Shown here: one piece after another, positions 18,535-29,948 of the stretch | Numbering within the stretch: the stretch's first letter is position 1 | How the letters are laid out: every line of letters begins with the position of its first letter | Assembly (NCBI GenBank): GCA_963665095.1 | Contig: OY762069.1 | Coordinates: forward strand, 6,048,001 to 6,112,000 | Source of the DNA: an uncultured Desulfobacter sp. | GTDB lineage: Bacteria > Desulfobacterota > Desulfobacteria > Desulfobacterales > Desulfobacteraceae | Reading direction: 5' to 3' | Length of the DNA stretch: 64,000 bases | Position numbers and translations under genes: made by a program | The notes under the pieces: generated by a model | Told to the model about the DNA's origin: nothing | Databases searched by the model: none | The model's input: the letters and a program-made list of their open reading frames with translations, nothing else

Positions 18535-18835
18535 ACGGCACATTGACAGGTGTACACACTCCCAGTCCGCCCTATATCTGTTTCTGGTGTGTGTGGCCGA
18601 CAGTCAAGGCATCAGCTACTATGGAGATAAGGCGATCATGGATCGGCTGTGCATGGATTCTGATGGCCTGAAGACAGCACGTTCCGGGTTAATACAGAAT
18701 GGGCTGATTGCCTGGCAGAGACCTATTTACCAGGTGCTTGCCCTTGACCCTGCTCCTGGTAAATCAAAACGGCACGGCTCCATGCTGCGTCTTTCAGATA
18801 TTCTAAAAGCAGCAGCGGAGGGCAACCATGATTGA
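18449..18835 (+). CDS. IS21 passenger ORF2, putative winged-helix DNA-binding protein
   Basis: FSWIDHRL..ALYLFL..DSQGISYY..ARSGLIQNGLI; AAGGAG SD; stop overlaps istA start. Confidence 0.75.
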   Translation: MIAKAPILPSRVRKTPQSFSWIDHRLVRERHIDRCTHSQSALYLFLVCVADSQGISYYGDKAIMDRLCMDSDGLKTARSGLIQNGLIAWQRPIYQVLALDPAPGKSKRHGSMLRLSDILKAAAEGNHD

Positions 18836-20303
18836 TTACGAAACCTATGTTCAAATCAGAAATTACTTTACCCGAGACGGCCTGACATACAGCCAGATTG
18901 CCAATGCCCTTGATCTGGACCCCAGGACAGTTGCCAGGTGGGCCAACCTGAAAAGGTACCAGCCCAGACAGTCAGCCCCCAGAGAAAGCAAGCTTGATCC
19001 GTATAAGAACGCCATCCTGCATATGCTTGAAAAACATCCCTACAGTTCCCGCCAGATATTTCAACGAATCACCCAGGATGGTTTTGCCGGGGGCATCACC
19101 ATTGTTGAGGATTATGTCAGGAAGGTGCGGCCGCCCAAAACAAAGGCGTATTTGAAACTGAGTTTTGCTCCGGGTGAAGCTGCCCAGGTGGACTGGGGTT
19201 CTTATAGTACAGTAAGGGTGGGCAACACGACCCGGCGGTTGAGCTTTTTTGTGATGGTGATGTGCCACAGCCGCATGATGTACGTTGAGTTCACGGTCTC
19301 CCAGACCATGGAGCATTTTTTAGGCTGCCACCAGAATGCATTTGAGTTTTTTGGAAAGGTGCCGGAAAAGGTCATGGTGGACAATCTCAAATCCGCTGTT
19401 CTAAAAAGACTGCTGGGGAAAGCCCCGGTCTTCAACCCCAGATACCTTGATTTTGCAGATTATTACGGATTTACAATTGTTCCCTGTAATGTGCGCAAGG
19501 GTAATGAAAAAGGCCGGGTTGAAAATGCTGTGGGCTATGTCAAAAAGAATCTGCTCAACGGTCTTGAAATCCCTGATTTTAAGATCATGGAGCCCACCTG
19601 CAAACACTGGCTTGATACTGTCGCCAATGTCAGAACCCACGGAGAGACCGGTCAAAAGCCCGCAGAGATGTATGCCCTGGAATTGCCCCACCTATACCCT
19701 CTGCCGTCAGAACCCTATGATATCGGTGTGGTAAAGCAGGTACGGGCTTCAAGACAGTACAGGGTAGTCATCGATACAAATGCTTACACAGTACCCGCCC
19801 AGCTGGCAGGGGTGGCTTTGACTGCCAAGCTTTACCCTGATCGGATCTGCTTTTACCATGAAGACAAGTTGGTTGCCCGCCATGTCAGATCCTATGGCCG
19901 CAAAAACGACCTTGAAGATCCTGATCACTCTAAAATCCTTTTGAGCCAGCGCAAAAAGGCCAGAGACCAGGCAATTTATATGCGTTTTTTAAGCCTCTCT
20001 GACAAGGCCCGGGAGTATTACAGGCAATTGCAGAACAGGCGGCTTAACGCCTCCCATCATGTACGGCAAATCGTGGCCTTGAGTGAAATCTACTCCCGGG
20101 AACAAGTTGCCATGGCCATTGAAGATGCCTTTAAGTTCTCTGCATTCTCATGTGAATACATCGCCAACCTCCTTGAGCAGCGGGTTCGGTCTCCCCAGGA
20201 GCCCGGAGCCCTGCATGTTACACATAAAGCAGATTTACTGAACCTGACAATCCAGGAGCCTGATCTTAATATTTATACCGCCATAGGAGATAAAAATGCC
20301 TGA
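18828..20303 (+). CDS. istA: IS21-family DDE transposase
   Basis: N-terminal HTH, PGEAAQVDW, VDNLKSAV, EKGRVE. Confidence 0.95.
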   Translation: MIDYETYVQIRNYFTRDGLTYSQIANALDLDPRTVARWANLKRYQPRQSAPRESKLDPYKNAILHMLEKHPYSSRQIFQRITQDGFAGGITIVEDYVRKVRPPKTKAYLKLSFAPGEAAQVDWGSYSTVRVGNTTRRLSFFVMVMCHSRMMYVEFTVSQTMEHFLGCHQNAFEFFGKVPEKVMVDNLKSAVLKRLLGKAPVFNPRYLDFADYYGFTIVPCNVRKGNEKGRVENAVGYVKKNLLNGLEIPDFKIMEPTCKHWLDTVANVRTHGETGQKPAEMYALELPHLYPLPSEPYDIGVVKQVRASRQYRVVIDTNAYTVPAQLAGVALTAKLYPDRICFYHEDKLVARHVRSYGRKNDLEDPDHSKILLSQRKKARDQAIYMRFLSLSDKAREYYRQLQNRRLNASHHVRQIVALSEIYSREQVAMAIEDAFKFSAFSCEYIANLLEQRVRSPQEPGALHVTHKADLLNLTIQEPDLNIYTAIGDKNA

Positions 20304-21030
20304 TCTTGAGAAATGCCTGTCCCACTTAAAACTACCTTATATCAGGGAAAACTATGAGTCAGTGGCTACCCTGGCTGCCCAGAAGCAATGGAGCCACGTT
20401 CAATATCTATCAGAGCTTGCCAGGCATGAATCACTACTGCGCCATGATAAAACCATCCAGCGCCGTATCCGTATGGCCAAGTTCCCGGTAATCAAAACCC
20501 TGGACCAGTTCAACTGGTCATGGCCCAGAAAAATCAATCAGGCTCAGATCCAGAATCTGTTCAGACTCAAGTTCATTGAAGAAAAGGGTAACATTATCGT
20601 GATCGGCCCGGTCGGTGTTGGGAAAACACATATTGCGACTGCTTTAGGTTACCAGGCCTGCCTGAAAAACCATACGGTTCTGTTCTCTTCTGCCATTGAT
20701 ATCGTCAACAATCTGGTGGCAGCCCAGAAGGCGGGTCAGTTAAAGCAGGAACTGAGAAAATACCTCAAGCCAACTTTGTTGATCATGGATGAACTGGGCT
20801 ACCTGCCCATTGACAAGATTGGGGCAGACCTGTTGTTCCAAATTATCAGTCAGCGCTATGAGCAAGGAGCCATCATAATAACCACAAACCGGGTGTTCAA
20901 AGATTGGCCGGAGATCTTCAACAATGACATGACATTAACATCAGCTTTGCTGGACAGGCTTCTTCACCACACCGAGCCTGTGGTCATTGAGGGTAAGAGT
21001 TTTAGAATGAAAGATGTGACGGAAGAATAA
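20296..21030 (+). CDS. istB: IS21-family AAA+ helper ATPase
   Basis: GPVGVGKT, LLIMDELGY, ITTN, LDRLLHH. Confidence 0.96.
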   Translation: MPDLEKCLSHLKLPYIRENYESVATLAAQKQWSHVQYLSELARHESLLRHDKTIQRRIRMAKFPVIKTLDQFNWSWPRKINQAQIQNLFRLKFIEEKGNIIVIGPVGVGKTHIATALGYQACLKNHTVLFSSAIDIVNNLVAAQKAGQLKQELRKYLKPTLLIMDELGYLPIDKIGADLLFQIISQRYEQGAIIITTNRVFKDWPEIFNNDMTLTSALLDRLLHHTEPVVIEGKSFRMKDVTEE

Positions 21031-21129
21031 CAAAGCCGAGGCCGGTCTACATGCATCTGGAGGCCGGCCCTTTAATCGCCTACATTTTTAAACCGGGAGA
21101 TTTATGACATGTTCACGCCCCGCCTGACA

Positions 21130-22152
21130 GATTATTTTGGGCCAGAGAGAATGCAGTTGATCCGGTGACATAGTTTTTAAGAAATTATCATTGTCGCTAA
21201 TATCCATAAGACCGGTAGAATCCATTCTCCACTTCATTTTTGCCATACTCTGGTTGATCTGAATGTTACTTGGGGCTGCAATCGATGCCCTTTGCACTGG
21301 CCATGAAATTGAAAGCGCAGGGACCGGCTCATATGATAATCCATTGAGCAGCCTTGATACTGTTGTACAAAAATCTGCTCTCATTCTTGAAAGCCGATTT
21401 GCCGGGTAATCTATCGCCGCAATTTTATCAACCAGTCGGTGGTGTTTATCACACAATAAAAGAATGTTGGAAGGATCATCAGATAGATGATCCGACATTA
21501 CCACAATACCCCGTGGACCATTTTCAGATGAAGCGACATTATGGGCCAGGTATGCATAATTGCCTTCGTAACCTGTGGTTTCATCCATTGTTAGATTTGC
21601 CCCACAACCTTCAAACATGCAGCGACCATGGGCTTCTATATACACTGTCGTCTTGGTGTCTTTTGAGAAGCCCTTTCCACGCCCAGACTCTGGCCCTTTA
21701 AAAAATATTTTTTCAATTTGGTCCAACTCCTTGGAAATCCCCAATTCAATTGATTGCGCCTCGGCTTTTTTCCACAAGGAATCTATATCTTCCAAAGACT
21801 GGATTTGTTCCTGGCTGAAAAATTGCCCTTGGCAGGCCCTGAAAATTATTGGAGCTGTTTTATCAGAAATAAAAAGCCGTATGGCCGTTAAAGTCTCTTC
21901 AGGGGAACCAAGACAGAGGCGAAAGACAGCAACGACACGATCTGTTTGAAGCAGCGTAATCAAGGTTGAGCATTGTTTTCCAATATTTTGATCAATTAAA
22001 ATTCCCACATGAGACCATTGGATATGTTCAGCCACTAATTTATGATGTGCTTCAACAAGGCCCAATTCATCAAGCGGAGGATGAATCGTCTGAACATAAA
22101 TAACTTCTGTTTTGTTTGTTTTACCAACCATCAGCGTTGCAGTCTCCTTCAT
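21130..22152 (-). pseudogene. 5' part of CBASS HNH-SAVED (Cap5-like) effector with extra N-terminal domain
   Basis: GRCMFEGC, LAHNVASSENGPRG, NILLLCDKHHRLVD HNH motifs; start overlaps cap3 stop (ATGA). Confidence 0.85.
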
Positions 22153-22643
22153 GCTTTTATTTTGTATTCCCCAACAACCGTAAGCGAATTCCTGATTATT
22201 TTTTTCGTTCCCATCCAACAACGGATATGGGTCCGTCCAACAATTATAAAAAATAAATGCCTGCCATCATAAACTGATTTATTAAGAGCTTTGAACCAGT
22301 CTGATTTATCTATTTTAGAGTAATGAGGGTAGTCTTCTGGATGGGTGTGCCATAGCCCGACATAGGTAGATATTTTATTGGATTCCTGCCAGATTTCTTG
22401 AACCAGCTTTTCATGGGCGCTTGATCTGTAAAACATACACGCGCCCTGTTTATCTCCTGTTTGTGGCGGCGTAAATTGGTCTATCACCATCCGGCCACCA
22501 CGGATTAAATGTTTCCCGATTAAAGCACCGCCTGATTCAGGAAACGTGCGATCCGTTTGCTGAAAGCGGCATATCTGCTCTAAAAGCGTGTGGTCAAATC
22601 GCACTTTGCCAAACGTTTGTATGTTTATGATCCAGTCATCCAT
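22149..22643 (-). CDS. cap3: CBASS JAB/MPN isopeptidase
   Basis: ESGGALIG and YVGLWHTHPE..SKID JAMM motif; start MDDW overlaps the reconstructed cap2 stop. Confidence 0.9.
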   Translation of the reverse strand: MDDWIINIQTFGKVRFDHTLLEQICRFQQTDRTFPESGGALIGKHLIRGGRMVIDQFTPPQTGDKQGACMFYRSSAHEKLVQEIWQESNKISTYVGLWHTHPEDYPHYSKIDKSDWFKALNKSVYDGRHLFFIIVGRTHIRCWMGTKKIIRNSLTVVGEYKIKA

Positions 22644-22728
22644 TATGGCACACCCCACAACTACAGGCTTTGTCATAGGCAGTTTCTTCTATCATGGCCA
22701 TTCCGTAATATCTTTTAGTCAACCCAAC
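22636..22728 (-). pseudogene. Detached 3' tail of cap2
   Basis: VG-LTKRYYGMAMIEETAYDKACSCGVRHNG* continues cap2 in frame across the TSD. Confidence 0.85.
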
Positions 22729-22866
22729 TGAGAATGATCACAAAAAATCATGGAAAAATTAAAGATAATTTGCAAGATATGCCAGGGATGAGGCAGAAGC
22801 TCCCCCGTTTATCTCGCAAATAATCAATGGAACTTCTGCCCCTATTACCCTAACAGGGCAGGAGAT

Positions 22867-23442
22867 ATGCTATCAGAACTTATTAAAAACAAAAATCTTT
22901 TTTTCCATCTTTACGAAATCGATAAAAATACAGCAAAACAGTACAGACAGTTGCCTTGTCCGCATTGTGGAGGCCCCTTATATTTCAGCAATTACATGCG
23001 CAAGCCCCGGGGAGAGCCTGAGGGCGTGCCGGAGGAATTCTTTATTCAGTTCAGCCTATGTTGTGGAACCGAAGGGTGTCGCAAAAGATTGATGCCGCCG
23101 TCCTGCCGTTTTCTGGGGAGAAAAGTCTACTGGTTTGCAGTTATTCTGTGTGTTTTAACAGACTGGCAAAATACCAATGAAAAAATCACCGTTTATGATT
23201 TGTCCATACGAACTGGCATTAGCCGGAACACAATAAACCGCTGGCTTGCCTTTTTTCAGGATACATTTCCAGTGAGCCGAACCTGGCGAAGGCTTCGGGG
23301 GCAGATATCCGCTGGTGTCAGTAACAGCCGTCTGCCGTCAAGTTTCATCAATTATTGCCGGGCGGTGAAATCCAACGCCGAAAACGCACTTGTATCAAGC
23401 CTGATAATCTTATCAGGCGGGTCCAAAATCAGGGCCGGATAA
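22867..23442 (+). CDS. Zn-finger + HTH accessory protein of the transposon
   Basis: CPHC...CCGTEGC; HTH-like TVYDLSIRTGISRNTINRW; GGAGA SD. Confidence 0.8.
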   Translation: MLSELIKNKNLFFHLYEIDKNTAKQYRQLPCPHCGGPLYFSNYMRKPRGEPEGVPEEFFIQFSLCCGTEGCRKRLMPPSCRFLGRKVYWFAVILCVLTDWQNTNEKITVYDLSIRTGISRNTINRWLAFFQDTFPVSRTWRRLRGQISAGVSNSRLPSSFINYCRAVKSNAENALVSSLIILSGGSKIRAG

Positions 23443-23548
23443 TCTCGCGCAGAGGATGAACATAGACAAATATATGCAGGCTGTTTTACCACCTGATTTC
23501 AGACGTTGATCCGAAATTTTAACCTGAAATTAAAAAGGAGCCTGATTT

Positions 23549-24994
23549 ATGAGTGGTAAAACACAGCACCCGGCAGACCTGTGGGCATTATTTCGCTTTT
23601 CGGTTATCGGCGGTTTACTGGCACGCCCTCCGGCAAAGGGAGAGTTGCAAAATGAACTGACCCGGCTCGCAGGTCAAATCTATTCTCATCCTGTGACGAA
23701 CAAACCGACCTGTTTTCATTTTTCCACAATTGAGGCCTGGTATTACAGGGCAAAAAATTGCCAGGACCCAATTCTGGCTCTGGGCCGTAAAGTTCGTTCA
23801 GATATGGGCAAATCCACAGCATTGAATGCTGAATTGATCCGCCTTCTTGGTGTCCAGTACAACACTTATCCGCAATGGAGCTATCAGCTTCATTGCGACA
23901 ACCTGGCAGCTGAAATCGCTGAACAGGGCCTGTGTGAGAATCCGCCGTCCTATGCAAGTGTGAGAAGGCGTATGGTTGAACGGGGTTGGAGAAAAAAGGC
24001 TTCCAAGAACAAAAATCAAACATCCGGACAGAAATCAGCTTTTAAGCGATTAGAAACGTATGAAGTCCGTAGTTATGAAACCGAAAACATCCATGAATTA
24101 TGGCATCTGGACTTTCACGAATGCAGCAGGCGCGTGGTGGACGAAAAAGGTCAGTGGCATACGCCCAAGGCATTGTGCATTCTTGATGATCGCTCCCGTC
24201 TGTGTTGTCATATTCAATGGTATTTGAATGAAACGGCAGAGGTTTTGATCCACGGCTTGTCCCAGGCGTTTTACAAAAGAGGGCTTCCCAGAGCCTTGAT
24301 GACAGATAATGGTTCTGCCATGATTGCTCATGAAACCGGCAACGGACTTAAACGATTGGGCGTCAGTCATGAGACCACGTTGCCATACTCGCCCTATCAA
24401 AATGGGAAGCAGGAAGCCTTTTGGGGTACACTTGAAGGCCGTTTGATCGCCATGCTGAGCCGGATGGATTCTTTGACCCTGGTATATTTAAATCAGGTCT
24501 CCCAGGCCTGGATCGAGATGGAATACAACAAGTCAACCCATGATGAAATTCATATGTCGCCATTGCAATGCGCCCTTGACGGCAAGGATGTGTCACGTCC
24601 TGCACCGGAACCTGAACAGCTTCAATTTTCGTTTACAGCCTGTGAATCCAGAAAACAGCGTCTGTCCGATGGTACCATCTCTTTGATGGGCATCCGGTTT
24701 GAAATCCCTTCACGGTTTAATCATATCCAGCGTCTTCATGTCTGTTTTTGCTCCTGGGATAAATCGGTTGCCTGGCTGATAGATAAACGAACCGGAAATA
24801 AGCTTGCCGCAATTTATCCCCAGGACAAGACAAAGAATGCTTCAGCAATCCGTCGTATCAAATCCACTCCGGATGAAATTAACCCTGGCCATGAAACCCT
24901 GTCCGGATCAGAACCGGCCCTGCTTAAAAAGCTCTTGTCCGATTATGCAGCAACCGGAATGCCTTGTGCCTACTTGCCAATGGAGGAAAAGTGA
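23549..24994 (+). CDS. DDE integrase/transposase (rve core, Mu-like C-terminus)
   Basis: ELWHLDF, ILDDRSR, MTDNGS, QNGKQE; C-terminal DGTISLMGIRFE. Confidence 0.92.
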   Translation: MSGKTQHPADLWALFRFSVIGGLLARPPAKGELQNELTRLAGQIYSHPVTNKPTCFHFSTIEAWYYRAKNCQDPILALGRKVRSDMGKSTALNAELIRLLGVQYNTYPQWSYQLHCDNLAAEIAEQGLCENPPSYASVRRRMVERGWRKKASKNKNQTSGQKSAFKRLETYEVRSYETENIHELWHLDFHECSRRVVDEKGQWHTPKALCILDDRSRLCCHIQWYLNETAEVLIHGLSQAFYKRGLPRALMTDNGSAMIAHETGNGLKRLGVSHETTLPYSPYQNGKQEAFWGTLEGRLIAMLSRMDSLTLVYLNQVSQAWIEMEYNKSTHDEIHMSPLQCALDGKDVSRPAPEPEQLQFSFTACESRKQRLSDGTISLMGIRFEIPSRFNHIQRLHVCFCSWDKSVAWLIDKRTGNKLAAIYPQDKTKNASAIRRIKSTPDEINPGHETLSGSEPALLKKLLSDYAATGMPCAYLPMEEK

Positions 24995-25818
24995 TGAACA
25001 GCAAACGATTATTGGCTTATTATGGATTGAAGTACAATCCTTTTTTACCAAATATTCCTGTGGACTCATTATGGCATCCACCCCGGATGGAGGCATTTAT
25101 TACACGCCTTGAAAATATGACCATGAACGGTGGATTTGCATTAATCGCCGGTGAACCCGGTCTTGGCAAATCCAAGACACTACAGGCGATTGCCCATCAG
25201 CTTGGCAAGCTTGATGAAGTCGTTGTCGGCGTTATGGAGCGCCCCCAAAGCAGCGTGGCCGATTTCTATCGGGAAATGGGGACACTGTTTGGTGTCAATT
25301 TGAGTCCGGCCAACCGTTACGGAGGGTTCAAAGATCTGCGGCAACGATGGAAAAATCATATTAAAACAACCCTGTTCAGACCCGTCCTGCTCATTGATGA
25401 GGCTCAGGAAATGCTTACCGGATGCCTGAATGAGCTTCGGTTGCTCAACAGTATGGATTTTGACTCCCAGAATTTATTGACCACCATTATCTGTGGTGAT
25501 ACCCGGCTGCCGGAACGGTTCAGAACCAGTGCATTGGTAGCCCTGGGGAGTCGACTCCGGTTCCGGTTAAAATTGGATCCTTATACCCGGGAAGAATTGT
25601 TGGATTATATAGCGCATTGCCTAAATCAGGCCGGAGCTCCTCAACTCATGACAAAACCTTTAATCACCGCTTTGGTAGAGCACTGTACAGGAAACTTACG
25701 GGTCCTCAATAATATGTCGGCAGAACTGCTTGAAGTGGGCGTTCAAAGAGAGCTGCCGCAACTGGATGAGAAACTTTTCATAGAGCTTTTTTCACTGAAA
25801 CCGTCGCCAACCAGATAA
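24994..25818 (+). CDS. ExeA/TniB-like AAA ATPase
   Basis: YYGLKYNPF, GEPGLGKS, LLIDEAQ, GNLRVLN; GGAGG SD and TGATG coupling to the transposase. Confidence 0.9.
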   Translation: MNSKRLLAYYGLKYNPFLPNIPVDSLWHPPRMEAFITRLENMTMNGGFALIAGEPGLGKSKTLQAIAHQLGKLDEVVVGVMERPQSSVADFYREMGTLFGVNLSPANRYGGFKDLRQRWKNHIKTTLFRPVLLIDEAQEMLTGCLNELRLLNSMDFDSQNLLTTIICGDTRLPERFRTSALVALGSRLRFRLKLDPYTREELLDYIAHCLNQAGAPQLMTKPLITALVEHCTGNLRVLNNMSAELLEVGVQRELPQLDEKLFIELFSLKPSPTR

Positions 25819-25829
25819 GAGGTATAAAA

Positions 25830-26072
25830 ATGACAATCAATGAAACACAACTTGAAAAAACAATGGCTGAAATTGTCGACGAGCTGGGCAATCTGGTCAT
25901 GGAGTTGATCCTTGTCAGTTTAAAAAAAATAAACTCGGAAAATCATCTTTTGACAGAATTGCTGGAGATCAAACAAGAGGAACAAAGAGAAAATGAATTT
26001 TATGGTTTTGGTGAAACGGAGCCGGGACATCCTGGGGAGGAAACCCGGCAAGGGATAGCCAAAAGCAGGTAG
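25830..26072 (+). CDS. Small acidic helical protein, fourth gene of the transposon
   Basis: GAGG SD, 11 bp after the ATPase, inside the element ends. Confidence 0.6.
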   Translation: MTINETQLEKTMAEIVDELGNLVMELILVSLKKINSENHLLTELLEIKQEEQRENEFYGFGETEPGHPGEETRQGIAKSR

Positions 26073-26269
26073 CATTGAATAATGCGCCGGGGGAAGCGGG
26101 GTTGACCTGCTTCCCCTTTCTGTATTATTCAAGCTTTCCTGCTCATGCCTTAAAAAACCCAATAAAATCAGTCGGAGCGCAGCGACATCTGCTAATCATT
26201 GAAAATACAGTTATGCCTTTCCCTGATTTATCCTGATTGTCGCTCCATTGATTATCGTGCTTCCTCTCA

Positions 26270-27889
26270 CCCAACTCCGGTAATATTGGGATTTTTCCAA
26301 CTGACCACCTTGTTGAGCGCATTATATTTTATGGTTTCAATACAAAGCCTTGTCGTTATCATGGCGGTCTGGGATGAGTCCAAATAAGAAAACGGGGTGA
26401 AAACCCCTGCACAGCCTGTTAAATTTTTGGTCAGATGTTGGCCCGGCATGACAAGGTTCAACGGTGATGCCAATGAAAATTTACCTGCGCGCCAGAATTG
26501 GCATTCGTAACAACTTGAATCAAGATTAACAGATAGCGCATGGCCTCCGGCACTGGCGGCTTCGTTCCAGCAATAAACAATCTTTTTAAAATGGGCGGTT
26601 TTGAATGCTTTATTTAAATACAGGTTCGCTGCCGGTGATCCTACAGCGGAAACAATGACATCCGCATTAATCAAAACTCTTTCACTCAAAATGCTCTCAG
26701 CTCGCTTGGGAATGGCATCAACTTGGATATATGGAAGCTCTGTTTTCAAAAAATCGGCAAGCACATTCACTTTGCGAAATAAAGGGACTTTCCCAGTTTC
26801 TTGTACAGGTTCATAAGAAAGATATCTTCCTCCCAACCTGTGGCGGTAAATATTATCAATTTCTAAAGAATCATTATCAATGAGGATAAGGTGACCAACC
26901 CCCGCTTTGGCCAGCATCACCGAAATTTCAGACCCCACTGACCCACAGCCGATTATGGCAACGCTTGAATTTAAAAGTTTTGTATCCGCACCCCCACGTT
27001 CAAGAAGGTAGCCTTTGTCATGCCTGTTGATCAAATAGACTTTAACTTTCGAGTCCTGGGATTTTTCTTTCAGGGGATGAGGTCTGGGCTTGGGGGCTGT
27101 CAGCCGAAATAAAATAAGGCTTCTCATCCCTTTAGACCTTGGGAAGCCAAACAAAATATAATGCTCCCTGGCAGAAGATAATTTGCTTATAATCTTGTCT
27201 ATCTTCTTTAAAAACGGAGCTTCAACGAGCGACAAAATGTTATAAATATATTTTGAATCAAGATTATTGACGCCCTGTGGCGGCAGCATAGGATACTGCG
27301 TTGGTATATAAACGGCTTTAATGGTTTGAAACGCATTGATTTTTGTAAAATTGCTGTATTGTTCCGGCAGAGCCTGTCCGTCATCATAAACAAAAAAGGG
27401 TTCTGCGGCAGTCTGCTTTCCATTTGTGGGTCGCCAGATTTTCAAATACACCTTTTGGGGAATATCTGCCCCTATGACGTTTCCTGGAATACGATCACTG
27501 ATCGGTTCGAAAAAGCCCTCATACTCGTCAGTTAATTCCATCCTGTTAACTTTTAAAGAACCGAAATCCAGGAGATCAACAGCAGATTCAATAACCGTAC
27601 TGATGATATCCTTCGGGCGCGTATAATCGACGATGATAGAATCGCTTTCATCAATGCATAGCAGGCCTGTGGCATTCACATGGGGAATAGTGCCAATCAT
27701 GTCCTCTTCCAACAAAAAGACATGTGGTAGGGAGTATGGAAACAGATCGTCAAAAAAGAATCGGGTGCACCATCTTCTATTTTTCCCTTGCAGGGTGAAA
27801 TAAAACTGGGTTTCCTTATGATGAGAGGCATCTATCAGTAAAGGATGTACAAATGCTTCCACCAAGGCCTTTAACGGGCCTTCATTCAT
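26270..27889 (-). pseudogene. cap2: CBASS E2-E1 (ThiF) conjugating enzyme, C-terminally truncated by transposon
   Basis: E2 PHVN..LCI; E1 IIGCGSVGS, DNDSLEIDNIYRH, CYEC, GCAGVFTPF; the stop codon is supplied by the transposon end. Confidence 0.9.
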
Positions 27890-28890
27890 GCATTGTTTCC
27901 CGTAGTGAGGTATGGCTTTTTATTTGAAGCTCTGGCCTCCTCTTCTTCAACCAGCGGGAACTTATCCCCAAAAACCTGTCTGAAAATTTTACTTGCCTTG
28001 TGCCCATCCGCTTCATCCCGCGCCGCTTCAAGAGCCTCAACCAACGCTTCAATCTTATCGTAAAAGATATTGGTCTGAATTAAGGTCATTTTTTCATAAA
28101 CATTGCTGAAAGGCTCAACCGGTAAATCCGCATTTATCGATTGTTTGTATGCGCCTGATTGCTCATCCCATACCATAAAAAAGCTGTTCTTGATGGCGGA
28201 TACAATGGCAATCAGCGACTCAAGGTCATTCCCCTCCTTGTAGTTAAAATTCTTACCCGCCTGAATAGTCAGTCCAATAGACGGCGGCATGGCATTGCCA
28301 TCAACTGAAAAATGTTTTTCCTTCCAGGCTTTCAGGTAGCGAACGCATCGGCGGTATTGGCTTCTTTTTTCAGCTGTGTCAGAAATATTATTTACCCAAT
28401 CAATGAGTTGTTTGGGAGACGACTTTTCCCAGGTCGGGTCCGTGGCATGTTCTTTTCCCCAGGCAATGTGGTAATCGTCTGAATTGGAGGCATAAACAGC
28501 AAGATCTACATGGTATCCGTCAGAATATTTTACTGTGATACATGGGCGGCGGATAACAACGGTTCTATTGTGCCTGGTCAATTTATCCCGTATCAATTTT
28601 TTGAGTTTAACCGGCTCATATTCCTGATTTGTAATGTCAAAAACGATTCCAACATCAATGTCGTAATCATTATTGGGCGGGATTATTCCTGTATGCATGG
28701 CATAAGACCCCTGCCCGAAATATGAAAAAACCAGTTTTTTATCTTTGCCCGGAATTTTCTCATCTTTCAAGCCTTGCTTTAACTCCTTAATCAAAAGCTC
28801 CCGTTTATCCCGAAGTTTCTGCTCCTCTTCATAGGTACCCAGCTTGATTGCATCATGAAATTTAATAAATTCATTTTGTAAATTAGGCAT
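27886..28890 (-). CDS. CBASS cGAS/DncV-like nucleotidyltransferase (CD-NTase)
   Basis: QGSYAMHT..DYDIDVG, YHVDLAVY, RYLKAWK; C-terminal tail ends TGNNA. Confidence 0.93.
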   Translation of the reverse strand: MPNLQNEFIKFHDAIKLGTYEEEQKLRDKRELLIKELKQGLKDEKIPGKDKKLVFSYFGQGSYAMHTGIIPPNNDYDIDVGIVFDITNQEYEPVKLKKLIRDKLTRHNRTVVIRRPCITVKYSDGYHVDLAVYASNSDDYHIAWGKEHATDPTWEKSSPKQLIDWVNNISDTAEKRSQYRRCVRYLKAWKEKHFSVDGNAMPPSIGLTIQAGKNFNYKEGNDLESLIAIVSAIKNSFFMVWDEQSGAYKQSINADLPVEPFSNVYEKMTLIQTNIFYDKIEALVEALEAARDEADGHKASKIFRQVFGDKFPLVEEEEARASNKKPYLTTGNNA

Positions 28891-29069
28891 ATGACCTTAC
28901 ACTCTCCAAATTGATTAAAGTTAACTAAATTCAAAATAATGCGAATACTTTCTTTGTCAATGTTGAGAATGCAAATAAATATAATTTTATTTTTTATCCT
29001 ACGATAAAATAGTATTTTGTGATAAATATACCTCTATATTTAATAAAATAAAAATTTATAAGGGTTCAG

Positions 29070-29948
29070 ATGCGCTGGAGCATAAAACAACGAATTGAAT
29101 TTATAGAAACTCGATTATACTGGGAAGGCAAAATCAGCAGAAAAGACCTTACCAACTACTTTGACATTTCTATTCCCCAAGCAACTAAAGACATTAAAGC
29201 CTATATTGAAGAGGCCCCTGGTAATATCCGCTATGACAACAAGGCGAAACAATACGTTGCCACAGAAGAATTCCAACCAATCCTGATTCCTGCGGACAGT
29301 GAATCTTATCTGAAAAGGCTGTTGACAAGTGATGTGGAACAAGGTGATTTTTTCTGCGGTAATATGCCTTCATTTTATAGCGCCCCATGTATTCAACGAA
29401 AAATTGATCCTCAAGTACTTAAATATATTTTAAGAAACATAGAAGACGGTAACGCAGTTTATATTGAATATCAGTCCATGAGTGGACCAGGACCGGGCTG
29501 GAGATGGATTACCCCTCATGCCATTGGGTTTGATGGGTTTAGATGGCATACCAGGGCATTTTGCCACAATGATCGAAAATTTAAAGATTTTAATCTTGGA
29601 AGAATCTATAAAACCAGGGAATCCAAGCCTCATACCATAGACGTTTCCATTGATTTCGAATGGGTTACTGATATTACTTTTAATATCGAACCCCATCCGG
29701 ACCTTACCAGGGAACAAAGAAAAGGCATTGAACATGATTACGGGATGACCAACGGTTTTCTTGAATTCGAAGTCAGAGGTGCCTTTGTTTTCTATATGCT
29801 TAAAAGGCTAAATCTTGGACCGGGCCACGAACTAAACGCCCCCATTCAGCAGCAGATAGTCCTTAAAAACTTTGAACAAATTGAAAATCAACGGCAAATG
29901 CTTGAAAAAATGTCGGCAAACAAAATTGAAGAAACCATACCAAGGTGA
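29070..29948 (+). CDS. capW: wHTH-WYL transcriptional regulator (CapW/BrdR-like)
   Basis: RIEFIETRLYWEGKISRKDL, IEYQSM, ITPHA..FDGFRWHTRAFC..FKDFNLGRI; divergent from CBASS. Confidence 0.88.
   Translation: MRWSIKQRIEFIETRLYWEGKISRKDLTNYFDISIPQATKDIKAYIEEAPGNIRYDNKAKQYVATEEFQPILIPADSESYLKRLLTSDVEQGDFFCGNMPSFYSAPCIQRKIDPQVLKYILRNIEDGNAVYIEYQSMSGPGPGWRWITPHAIGFDGFRWHTRAFCHNDRKFKDFNLGRIYKTRESKPHTIDVSIDFEWVTDITFNIEPHPDLTREQRKGIEHDYGMTNGFLEFEVRGAFVFYMLKRLNLGPGHELNAPIQQQIVLKNFEQIENQRQMLEKMSANKIEETIPR

Follow-up and report, generated by a model that had tools for sequence, protein, structure and literature searches.

The 64,000-nucleotide stretch analysed here (the window; contig OY762069.1 of assembly GCA_963665095.1, positions 6,048,001 to 6,112,000, from an uncultured Desulfobacter sp.) carries at positions 22729-26269 an element of 3541 bp that starts with TGAGA and finishes with TCTCA, and that is almost certainly an active transposon of the Tn6049 type. 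The explanation that we prefer for the element as a whole, with a probability of about 0.5, is that of an autonomous, spreading Tn6049-type transposon that would move by ATPase-assisted copy-out/paste-in. An earlier note, made from the letters of the sequence, had described four open reading frames (ORFs), encoding a zinc-finger/helix-turn-helix (HTH) protein, a DDE transposase, a coupled ATPase and a product of 80 aa; all four were recovered in place. The ends it had proposed were exact and unchanged in all 13 full copies of the genome. No resolvase or TnsA was detected between the ends in the ORF list or with Pfam and NCBIfam-type models.

Affiliation to the Tn6049 type

A plasmid search gave 48.6% matches on pMOL28 (one), pMOL30 (one) and the chromid (three) of Cupriavidus metallidurans CH34, and on pHS87a. 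The matched element was identified as Tn6049, because this distribution equals the one published for Tn6049 and the ends of the pHS87a match agree with those printed in PMC4739549. Tn6049 is described as a 3.5-kb element with 12 copies and an ATPase gene named gspA (PMC2864759); four-gene relatives, including one of Desulfobacterium autotrophicum, were tabulated in 2012 (PMC3414803, Table S5), and the Tn6049 module 'could not be categorized' (PMC6210171). Tn6048 was rejected as the named relative, as it is a 10.4-kb element of the Tn5053 type.

The studied element and Tn6049 (C. metallidurans CH34; Pseudomonas aeruginosa pHS87a) agree in size (3541 and 3517 bp), in high copy number, in the gene order 'Mob prot', TnpA, ATPase and small unknown ORF, in imperfect TG...CA ends with the same subterminal motif, and in a short target duplication of variable length, which in Tn6049 was of 4-6 bp at 4/4 sites (5, 6, 4 and 6 bp). 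Identity to Tn6049 was 38% for ORF1 (E 9e-27), 49% for the transposase and 50% for the ATPase, and the ORF1 profile matched the first gene of Tn6049 with E 2e-50; ORF4 gave no BLAST hit to the 'UF' protein of Tn6049 and was 19% identical to it in a 13-row alignment. They differ in the ends, which are TGTGC/GCACA in Tn6049 and TGAGA/TCTCA in the studied element, and in the structured RNA motif described below, which was not found in Tn6049.

The transposase phylogeny suggested in the earlier note was carried out with 43 sequences, and placed the element and Tn6049 in a clade of 25 rows with 97% support (Shimodaira-Hasegawa-like approximate likelihood ratio test, SH-aLRT), apart from Mu, TniA and Tn552; a tree of 20 ATPases gave the same grouping (99%), both being quick trees with long outgroup branches from which Tn7 TnsB was left out. 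The idea of a distinct ATPase-dependent family is correct in that the element lies outside IS481, IS21, Mu, Tn7 and Tn5053, whose cut-offs were missed, but the family is not an undescribed one, since it is of the Tn6049 type. The transposase reached 89.9 bits with the IS481 model NF033577 (cut-off 224) and 37.4 bits with the IS21 model NF033546 (cut-off 160), and the ATPase did not match the IstB models NF038214 and PF01695. IS481 elements have a single ORF, TGT...ACA ends and a duplication of about 6 bp, whereas the studied element has four ORFs, TGA...TCA ends and duplications of 3-7 bp. With IS21 (IstA/IstB) it shares the size of an insertion sequence (IS), a transposase with an AAA+ helper and several end sites, but IstA and IstB were non-significant against the profiles of the Tn6049-type family.

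The closest homologues outside the family by profile belong to Tn552-like elements, Mu and ShCAST (TnsB/TnsC), in which a DDE transposase of about 480 aa is likewise coupled to an AAA+ ATPase of about 270 aa. They were Tn552-like TnpA (E 1e-18 to 1e-23) and ShTnsB for the transposase, and phiSHP3 B, MuB and ShTnsC for the ATPase, MuB and ShTnsC being its nearest relatives of solved structure. Unlike these systems, the studied element has no resolvase and no TniQ, carries an extra zinc ribbon-HTH gene and shows a variable duplication. The Mu-like tail that had been attributed to the transposase was not matched by the Pfam Mu-C model, although by profile the protein came closest to Tn552 TnpA and ShTnsB among the outside families. 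The catalytic residues D188, D253 and E289 were invariant in 36 transposases, and the Walker motifs in 40 ATPases. In the planctomycete loci L071, L078 and L085 several copies encode the N-terminus of the transposase in another reading frame, possibly as a result of a programmed frameshift.

More distant relatives are the cassettes of Bacillota with DUF6431, DDE and AAA genes (Clostridium sp. JS66; Geobacillus pGeo12a). They have the same three-gene plan, and both their transposase (profile E 7e-41) and their ATPase (E 2e-30) are homologous, but they form a distant branch with about 25% identity, and the RNA motif was not found in L135. The cassette of Clostridium JS66 is present in 15 copies and is described only as 'repetitive gene cassettes' (bioRxiv 10.64898/2026.08.16.744336, section 3.6). 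The Bacillota cassettes are closer to a second element of the Desulfobacter genome, named element B (L125, G000:C1:962703-965800), than to the studied element. Element B is a distant three-gene relative of 3098 bp, with 14 copies, a transposase 27% identical, TGT…ACA ends, duplications of 4-5 bp in 13/14 copies and the same RNA motif; one of its copies is interrupted by a 1.3-kb insert. Other elements of the TGT...ACA branch have near-fixed duplications, of 6 bp in 4/5 (G023, L105-L109) and 5 bp in 9/13 (G022, L112-L124), in contrast to the TGA...TCA branch, and bear the RNA motif in a diverged form.

Neither a mechanism for Tn6049-type transposons nor a role for their accessory genes was found in the literature searched. 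The same holds for the variable duplication, the RNA module and the apparent primase exchange, in a search that did not extend to ISfinder, TnCentral or the first description of Tn6049.

Genomic copies and target duplications

Twelve identical full-length copies, one copy at 96.7% and one 5' fragment were present in the genome, and the read depth over the element was about 11-12 times that of its flanks (run X2). The 12 identical full copies fix the ends and indicate that the element is spreading now.

The duplications of 12 of the 13 copies were 3, 3, 3, 4, 4, 5, 6, 6, 6, 6, 6 and 7 bp long, and that of the thirteenth was imperfect, of 6-7 bp. Four insertion sites were compared with empty alleles: the 3-bp and 7-bp duplications inside IS21 were backed by 13 and 12 fully identical empty alleles, respectively, a 6-bp duplication in another repeat by seven identical ones, and a further one of 6 bp by a set of paralogues 92-99% identical. 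The relatives were variable likewise, with duplications of 3-6 bp in Desulfospira (9/9 distinct sites), 3-4 bp in G005/G021 (6/7 sites), 4-6 bp in G020 (3/3 sites) and 3-4 bp in Spirochaetia (4/4 sites). A fixed 6-bp duplication was consequently rejected; the sequence CCCAAC, which the earlier note had read as an IS481-like duplication of 6 bp, is indeed that of the window copy, but it does not describe the element, in which the length ranges over 3-7 bp.

Matching flanks were missing in 1/3 copies of Planctomycetaceae and in 4/5 copies of Isosphaeraceae. In one Isosphaeraceae assembly the flanking 5-bp repeats were swapped among three copies (L068, L069 and L072), pointing to rearrangement between copies or to misassembly. 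In the Desulfobacter genome, the copy at G000:C1:2570829-2574369 is flanked by CCTAAGG and CCTAAGA, which can be read either as 7 bp with a single mismatch or as 6 bp with an extra base at the left end; the extra base could be the remnant of a circle junction. Another copy (G000:C1:3464861-3468401), whose flanks had about 120 matches, interrupts a CRISPR-like array, the repeat type of which we take to be I-C. Two other genomic copies of IS21 are interrupted by the studied element, and two copies, for which insertion inside element B was considered and rejected, adjoin element B.

The fourth slot and the structured RNA motif

The slot between the ATPase gene and the right end appears to be an exchangeable module, occupied by a primase, a helicase or a structured RNA in different members of the family. 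A scan of 49 proteins, drawn from a set of 94 candidate ORFs together with a number of proteins of the first gene, detected a RepB-type primase in 4 loci, a DnaG-like CHC2-Toprim primase in 2 and an AAA_25 helicase in 15. Within mapped ends, the RepB-type primase was found in L020, and the AAA_25 helicase, with or without a CHC2 finger, in L071 and L085. The other members, including the studied element, have in this slot just a helical ORF of 56-80 aa with weak mutual similarity. ORF4 had no match in Pfam, NCBIfam or the Atlas, and its last 22 codons or so read through a conserved non-coding structure; in L017, a close relative, the ORF has 57 aa and ends before that structure. No primase remnant was present in the studied element or its genome. 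The cleanest swap is between two sister elements with cores 80.7% identical, L020, which has a primase but lacks the motif, and G020, which has the motif but lacks a primase; the RNA motif was found in 0/6 primase-bearing elements, three of which are close kin and one of which (L050) is incomplete.

The region 26006-26185 was 72-87% identical, and in the same position, among elements whose transposases are 24-50% identical, and its 5' part folds as three helices. A pattern in which the loops were fixed and most stem positions were free detected at least 120 metagenome loci and 4/401 genomes of the phylum, and the motif was not found in viral contigs (0) or plasmids. The loci listed comprised 113 distinct sequences, in which pairing was kept in 94-99% at the free positions of P2 (41-84% in shuffles) and in 88-100% at seven pairs of P1 (57-94% in shuffles). 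In a 49-row subset of the listed loci 95.9% of the cells were paired, with 142 double changes, a value reached by 0/500 shuffles; kinship inflates these tests, but the slid controls, which retain the same kinship, gave 28-47%. A covariance model searched over 76 sources gave 15 strong and five weaker full-length matches, none of them in the six primase-bearing elements or Tn6049 and one in a helicase-bearing member.

A TAnnnT box precedes the loop by exactly 19 nt in 47/117 listed loci, and 22 have TTG(A/C) at -43 to -41, as for a sigma-70-like promoter of the motif's own. Downstream follow a long hairpin with a terminator-like core and then a conserved tail (90/113 listed loci). With Rfam no match near the gathering score was obtained for the region of the element or for 20 of the at least 120 motif loci, and no account of the motif was found in the literature searched. 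Resemblances to the hammerhead, the c-di-AMP and SAM riboswitches, oriT and dso sites were considered, but had no Rfam support and were discarded.

A transposition gene was located within about 700 bp of the motif in 65/80 listed metagenome loci with long flanks. By hand count, and without a random-locus control, these genes were of the Tn6049 type (26), rve (IS3/IS481-like; 13), IS21 (11), IS110 (7), ISL3 (5) and IS256 (3); none was found in 15/80 loci (four of these without a Pfam scan), and 40 loci with 300-bp flanks were excluded. The motif occurs in either orientation relative to the neighbouring transposases, and in L204, L210, L213, L229 and L232 it is located between istA and istB of IS21, on the opposite strand. 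No transposase was near it in L155, L159, L168, L176, L179, L184, L186 and L196, and the copy of L184 is beside a RepL plasmid replication gene; such copies could represent miniature elements or host genes that stand on their own. All 27 copies of the Desulfobacter genome are inside the studied element (element A) and element B, the two Tn6049-type elements, and none is free-standing.

With respect to function, there is about an even chance that the RNA is a passenger carried by ISs, either a selfish module encoding a small RNA or a small RNA taken over from a host, acting at most as a terminator and without a role in transposition. The six kinds of transposase, the either orientation, the 15/80 listed loci without transposase, the promoter signature of its own and the many family members without the motif are in agreement with this. 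So is the small RNA ssr9 of ISPpu9 (IS110 family), which is dispensable for transposition (PMC12288879). Like the motif, ssr9 is encoded downstream of a transposase; it is reported for one IS, whereas the motif spans six transposase kinds. A passenger is less easily reconciled with the confinement of all 27 genomic copies to two Tn6049-type elements without a free-standing host copy, with the single position and 72-87% identity across such divergent elements, and with the absence of the motif from 6/6 primase-bearing elements.

A role of the RNA in priming, proposed by analogy, is unlikely, and the passenger is at least as likely as this role. Less likely still is its specific form, that the motif represents a primer RNA not described before, or an RNA plus primosome site, acquired by at least six IS kinds to start the replication step of copy-out and interchangeable with the primase in Tn6049-type elements. 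A GAGCG(C/T/A)AGCGA box is present 3' of the motif in 13/105 listed loci versus 0/110 upstream controls. ColE1 has a single such box, some 140 bp beyond the end of the primer region, while here it is about 28 nt from the tail, a different distance; we take it, as a lead only, to be the ColE1 primosome site. Replication of ColE1 employs an RNA primer and a primosome site (PMC3167613).

Proposed mode of transposition

Strand transfer is very probably assisted by the ATPase, by analogy with IS21, Mu and Tn7 (PMC11208146), and the odds that the pathway is copy-out/paste-in are about even. In this pathway, the transposase would bind the repeated GATAATC-like sites and synapse the ends, and the ATPase would load on target DNA and license strand transfer. 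One end of the element would be joined beside the other and replication would then free a circle, to be pasted with a loosely set stagger of 3-7 nt while the donor copy stays. ORF1 would regulate the element's own DNA, for example via the conserved box before the transposase gene, and would not be a TniQ; ORF4 would be a small, dispensable helical protein; and the structured RNA in the slot would serve the replication step, which is the weakest link.

Copy-out is favoured because resolvase and TnsA are absent, because 12/13 copies on one chromosome keep matching flanking repeats, which fits simple insertion and not intramolecular replicative transposition, and because priming enzymes of three unrelated kinds are found inside the ends. 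It is also favoured by the other hosts of the motif, which are circle-forming families: IS3-like, IS21, IS110, ISL3 and IS256 elements are listed as such in a work that also describes a PrimPol active on elements of this sort (10.1101/2023.06.07.543989).

A somewhat less likely alternative is nick-and-join as in Mu, Tn552 and ShCAST, in which both 3' ends would be nicked and joined to an ATPase-coated target, and the cointegrate resulting from replication would be resolved by host recombination; the primase and helicase cargo would then aid the restart of replication at the branched intermediate. The ranking of Tn552-like TnpA, ShTnsB, phiSHP3 B, MuB and ShTnsC as closest outside relatives agrees with it, as do the TG...CA ends with several internal sites and the swapped flanks of L068, L069 and L072. 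The Tn552-like and Tn402 loci examined carry a resolvase, however, which the studied element lacks, and 12/13 chromosomal copies retain matching flanks. Moreover, Mu, TniA and Tn552 form a separate 98% clade (in the quick tree, with long branches), and the studied element duplicates 3-7 bp, whereas Mu and Tn7 duplicate a fixed 5 bp.

Several observations weigh against copy-out and the part assigned in it to the RNA. The systems of Tn552 TnpA, ShTnsB, MuB and ShTnsC, which rank closest while IstA and IstB are not significant, are not known to be copy-out elements. An end-to-end circle junction was not found in the contigs of four runs, a weak negative since contigs drop rare forms. The copy-out model ISCth4 has variable spacers yet a fixed 8-bp duplication (PMC7780238), so the variable duplication is no proof of circles. 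One Isosphaeraceae genome has 4/5 copies without matching flanks, three of them swapped, as rearrangement or replicative transposition would give. As to the RNA, the -10 box of the window copy is poor, and the motif is not a clean primase substitute, because it is also missing from several primase-free members, Tn6049 among them, and is found together with a helicase in L066, L185 and L220.

The single joint present in the reads, from 23511 to 22736 (run X10), links GATC to GATC and was set aside as a probable proximity-ligation artefact.

ORF1 and target choice

On balance, ORF1 is rather to be seen as a regulator acting on the DNA of the element itself; a regulator, the other role considered in the earlier note, is thus plausible. 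The cysteines C31, C34, C66 and C71 are invariant, HTH_23 was matched at E<=0.5 in 44/81 members, and the gene precedes that of the transposase in almost all loci that have space for it. Homologues comprised 2587 clusters (50% identity) at E<=0.001. The ORF1 profile weakly matched proteins of the DUF6431 type (best E 1.3e-5), the Atlas groups ORF1 with clusters that are 48% and 74% DUF6431, and nothing significant was found among solved structures. A box of the type CGCAGA(A/G)G follows ORF1 in 21/36 of the upstream regions tested, across phyla, and was unmatched in Tn6049; the copy at 23448-23458 is a candidate operator.

The insertion neighbourhoods were AT-richer (0.444 versus 0.487 ± 0.010) and repeat-rich (0.315 versus 0.035), and no target consensus was shared among the 13 insertion sites. 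The same regional bias was shown by element B (0.438, 0.21), IS21 (0.429, 0.38) and all repeat blocks (0.445, 0.34), so specific targeting was rejected.

That ORF1 is a TniQ-like target selector, binding DNA and recruiting the ATPase, as the earlier note had proposed, is very improbable: its conserved place upstream of the transposase, its zinc and HTH motifs, the regional bias and the statement that Tn6049 is 'often associated with genomic islands' (PMC2864759) would suit such a role, but its profile matches DUF6431-type proteins and none of three TniQ proteins (Tn402 TniQ and two others), TniQ is absent among the 25 families listed of 71, the bias is equal for the other elements, and the 13 targets have no common sequence.

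Organization of the element

The features of the element and of the gene it interrupts are detailed in Table 1. The left end is alignable with the ends of relatives, and GATAATC-type repeats are also present in the right ends of relatives. The internal motif that had been noticed inside the left end and, inverted, near the right end was found again at both places, and its left copy is a probable extra transposase-binding site. The ATG of the ATPase gene overlaps the stop of the transposase gene.

Table 1. Features of the element and of the interrupted gene (positions in the window)
Feature	Positions	Strand	Basis or remarks
Cap2 3' remnant, last ~28 codons with Cys cluster	22636-22722	-	Empty-site frame
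Target duplication, left copy (CCCAAC)	22723-22728	+	Sequence, comparison of copies
Left end, imperfect terminal inverted repeat of ~26 bp from TGAGA	22729-22755	+	Same in 13 copies and one fragment
Internal left-end site ATAATCAATGGA	22820-22831	+	Inverted match at 26244-26255
ORF1, 191 aa, zinc ribbon and helix-turn-helix	22867-23442	+	DUF6431-like
DNA box CGCAGA(A/G)GATG, just 3' of the ORF1 stop, ~100 bp 5' of the transposase	23448-23458	+	Conservation
DDE transposase, 481 aa	23549-24994	+	Invariant D188, D253, E289
ExeA/GspA-like AAA+ ATPase, 274 aa	24994-25818	+	Walker A 53-60, Walker B D135-E136, invariant R187
ORF4, 80 aa, ~57-aa helical core	25830-26072	+	Weakly similar short ORFs in same slot of relatives
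Covarying three-helix RNA motif (P1, P2, P3; internal loop GAAACGGA / AAGGGATA)	26006-26064	+	No Rfam match
Long hairpin, z -3.97; terminator-like stem and T-run at 26089-26127	26064-26145	+	
Conserved tail of RNA module: ATGCCTTAAAAAACCC at 26145-26160, GAGCGCAGCGA box at 26175-26185	26145-26185	+	
Right end, terminal inverted repeat closing in TCTCA; more GATAATC-like repeats inward	26244-26269	-	
Cap2 5' part, now 540 aa, stop supplied by the element end	26267-27889	-	PADLOC E1-E2, E 5.9e-175, model length 568
Target duplication, right copy (CCCAAC)	26270-26275	+	Sequence, comparison of copies

The interrupted CBASS gene

The element is inserted in the Cap2 (E2-E1) gene of a cyclic-oligonucleotide-based antiphage signalling system (CBASS), whose operon comprises CD-NTase, Cap2, Cap3 and an HNH effector. 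The interrupted gene could be reconstructed, as the earlier note had anticipated, although its identity as Cap2, like the RNA motif, had escaped that note: when the empty site is computed, a continuous frame of 568 aa spans it, which is also how long the best PADLOC model is. The insertion cuts off the last 28 residues or so of Cap2, including the Cys cluster, and a clipped protein is predicted. Intact close relatives of this Cap2 were found in 0/150 genomes of the family at E<=1e-40.

The operon is of type II (window 22149-29948), with the CD-NTase at 27886-28890 and Cap3 at 22149-22676, and beside it is a divergent WYL-domain gene at 29070-29948. The HNH/SAVED effector aligns to only 327/529 positions of its model and adjoins an IS21 (IstA/IstB; about 15 genomic copies; window 18828-21030 and 21088-22221). 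The operon seems to have been struck twice, by two different elements, because the effector is partial and adjoins IS21.

Significance

The family of Tn6049 has already been named and tabulated, and hence the element is not a new family. A covarying RNA motif without Rfam match, a variable duplication and an apparent exchange between RNA and primase are, as far as the searched literature goes, new. Tn6049-type transposons are widespread, ORF1 alone accounting for 2587 clusters, and very active, and the insertion studied here has left a CBASS operon apparently struck by two different elements. The transposition pathway is directly testable, because one genome provides 13 insertion sites of an element whose ends are exact, together with a second, cognate element. 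To our knowledge, second-strand priming in copy-out transposition is poorly known; it becomes testable in a family such as this, where modules of primase, helicase or RNA replace each other in a single slot. The RNA motif deserves cataloguing whatever its function; if it were a primer, IS-sized elements would bring their own priming device, as a protein or as an RNA.

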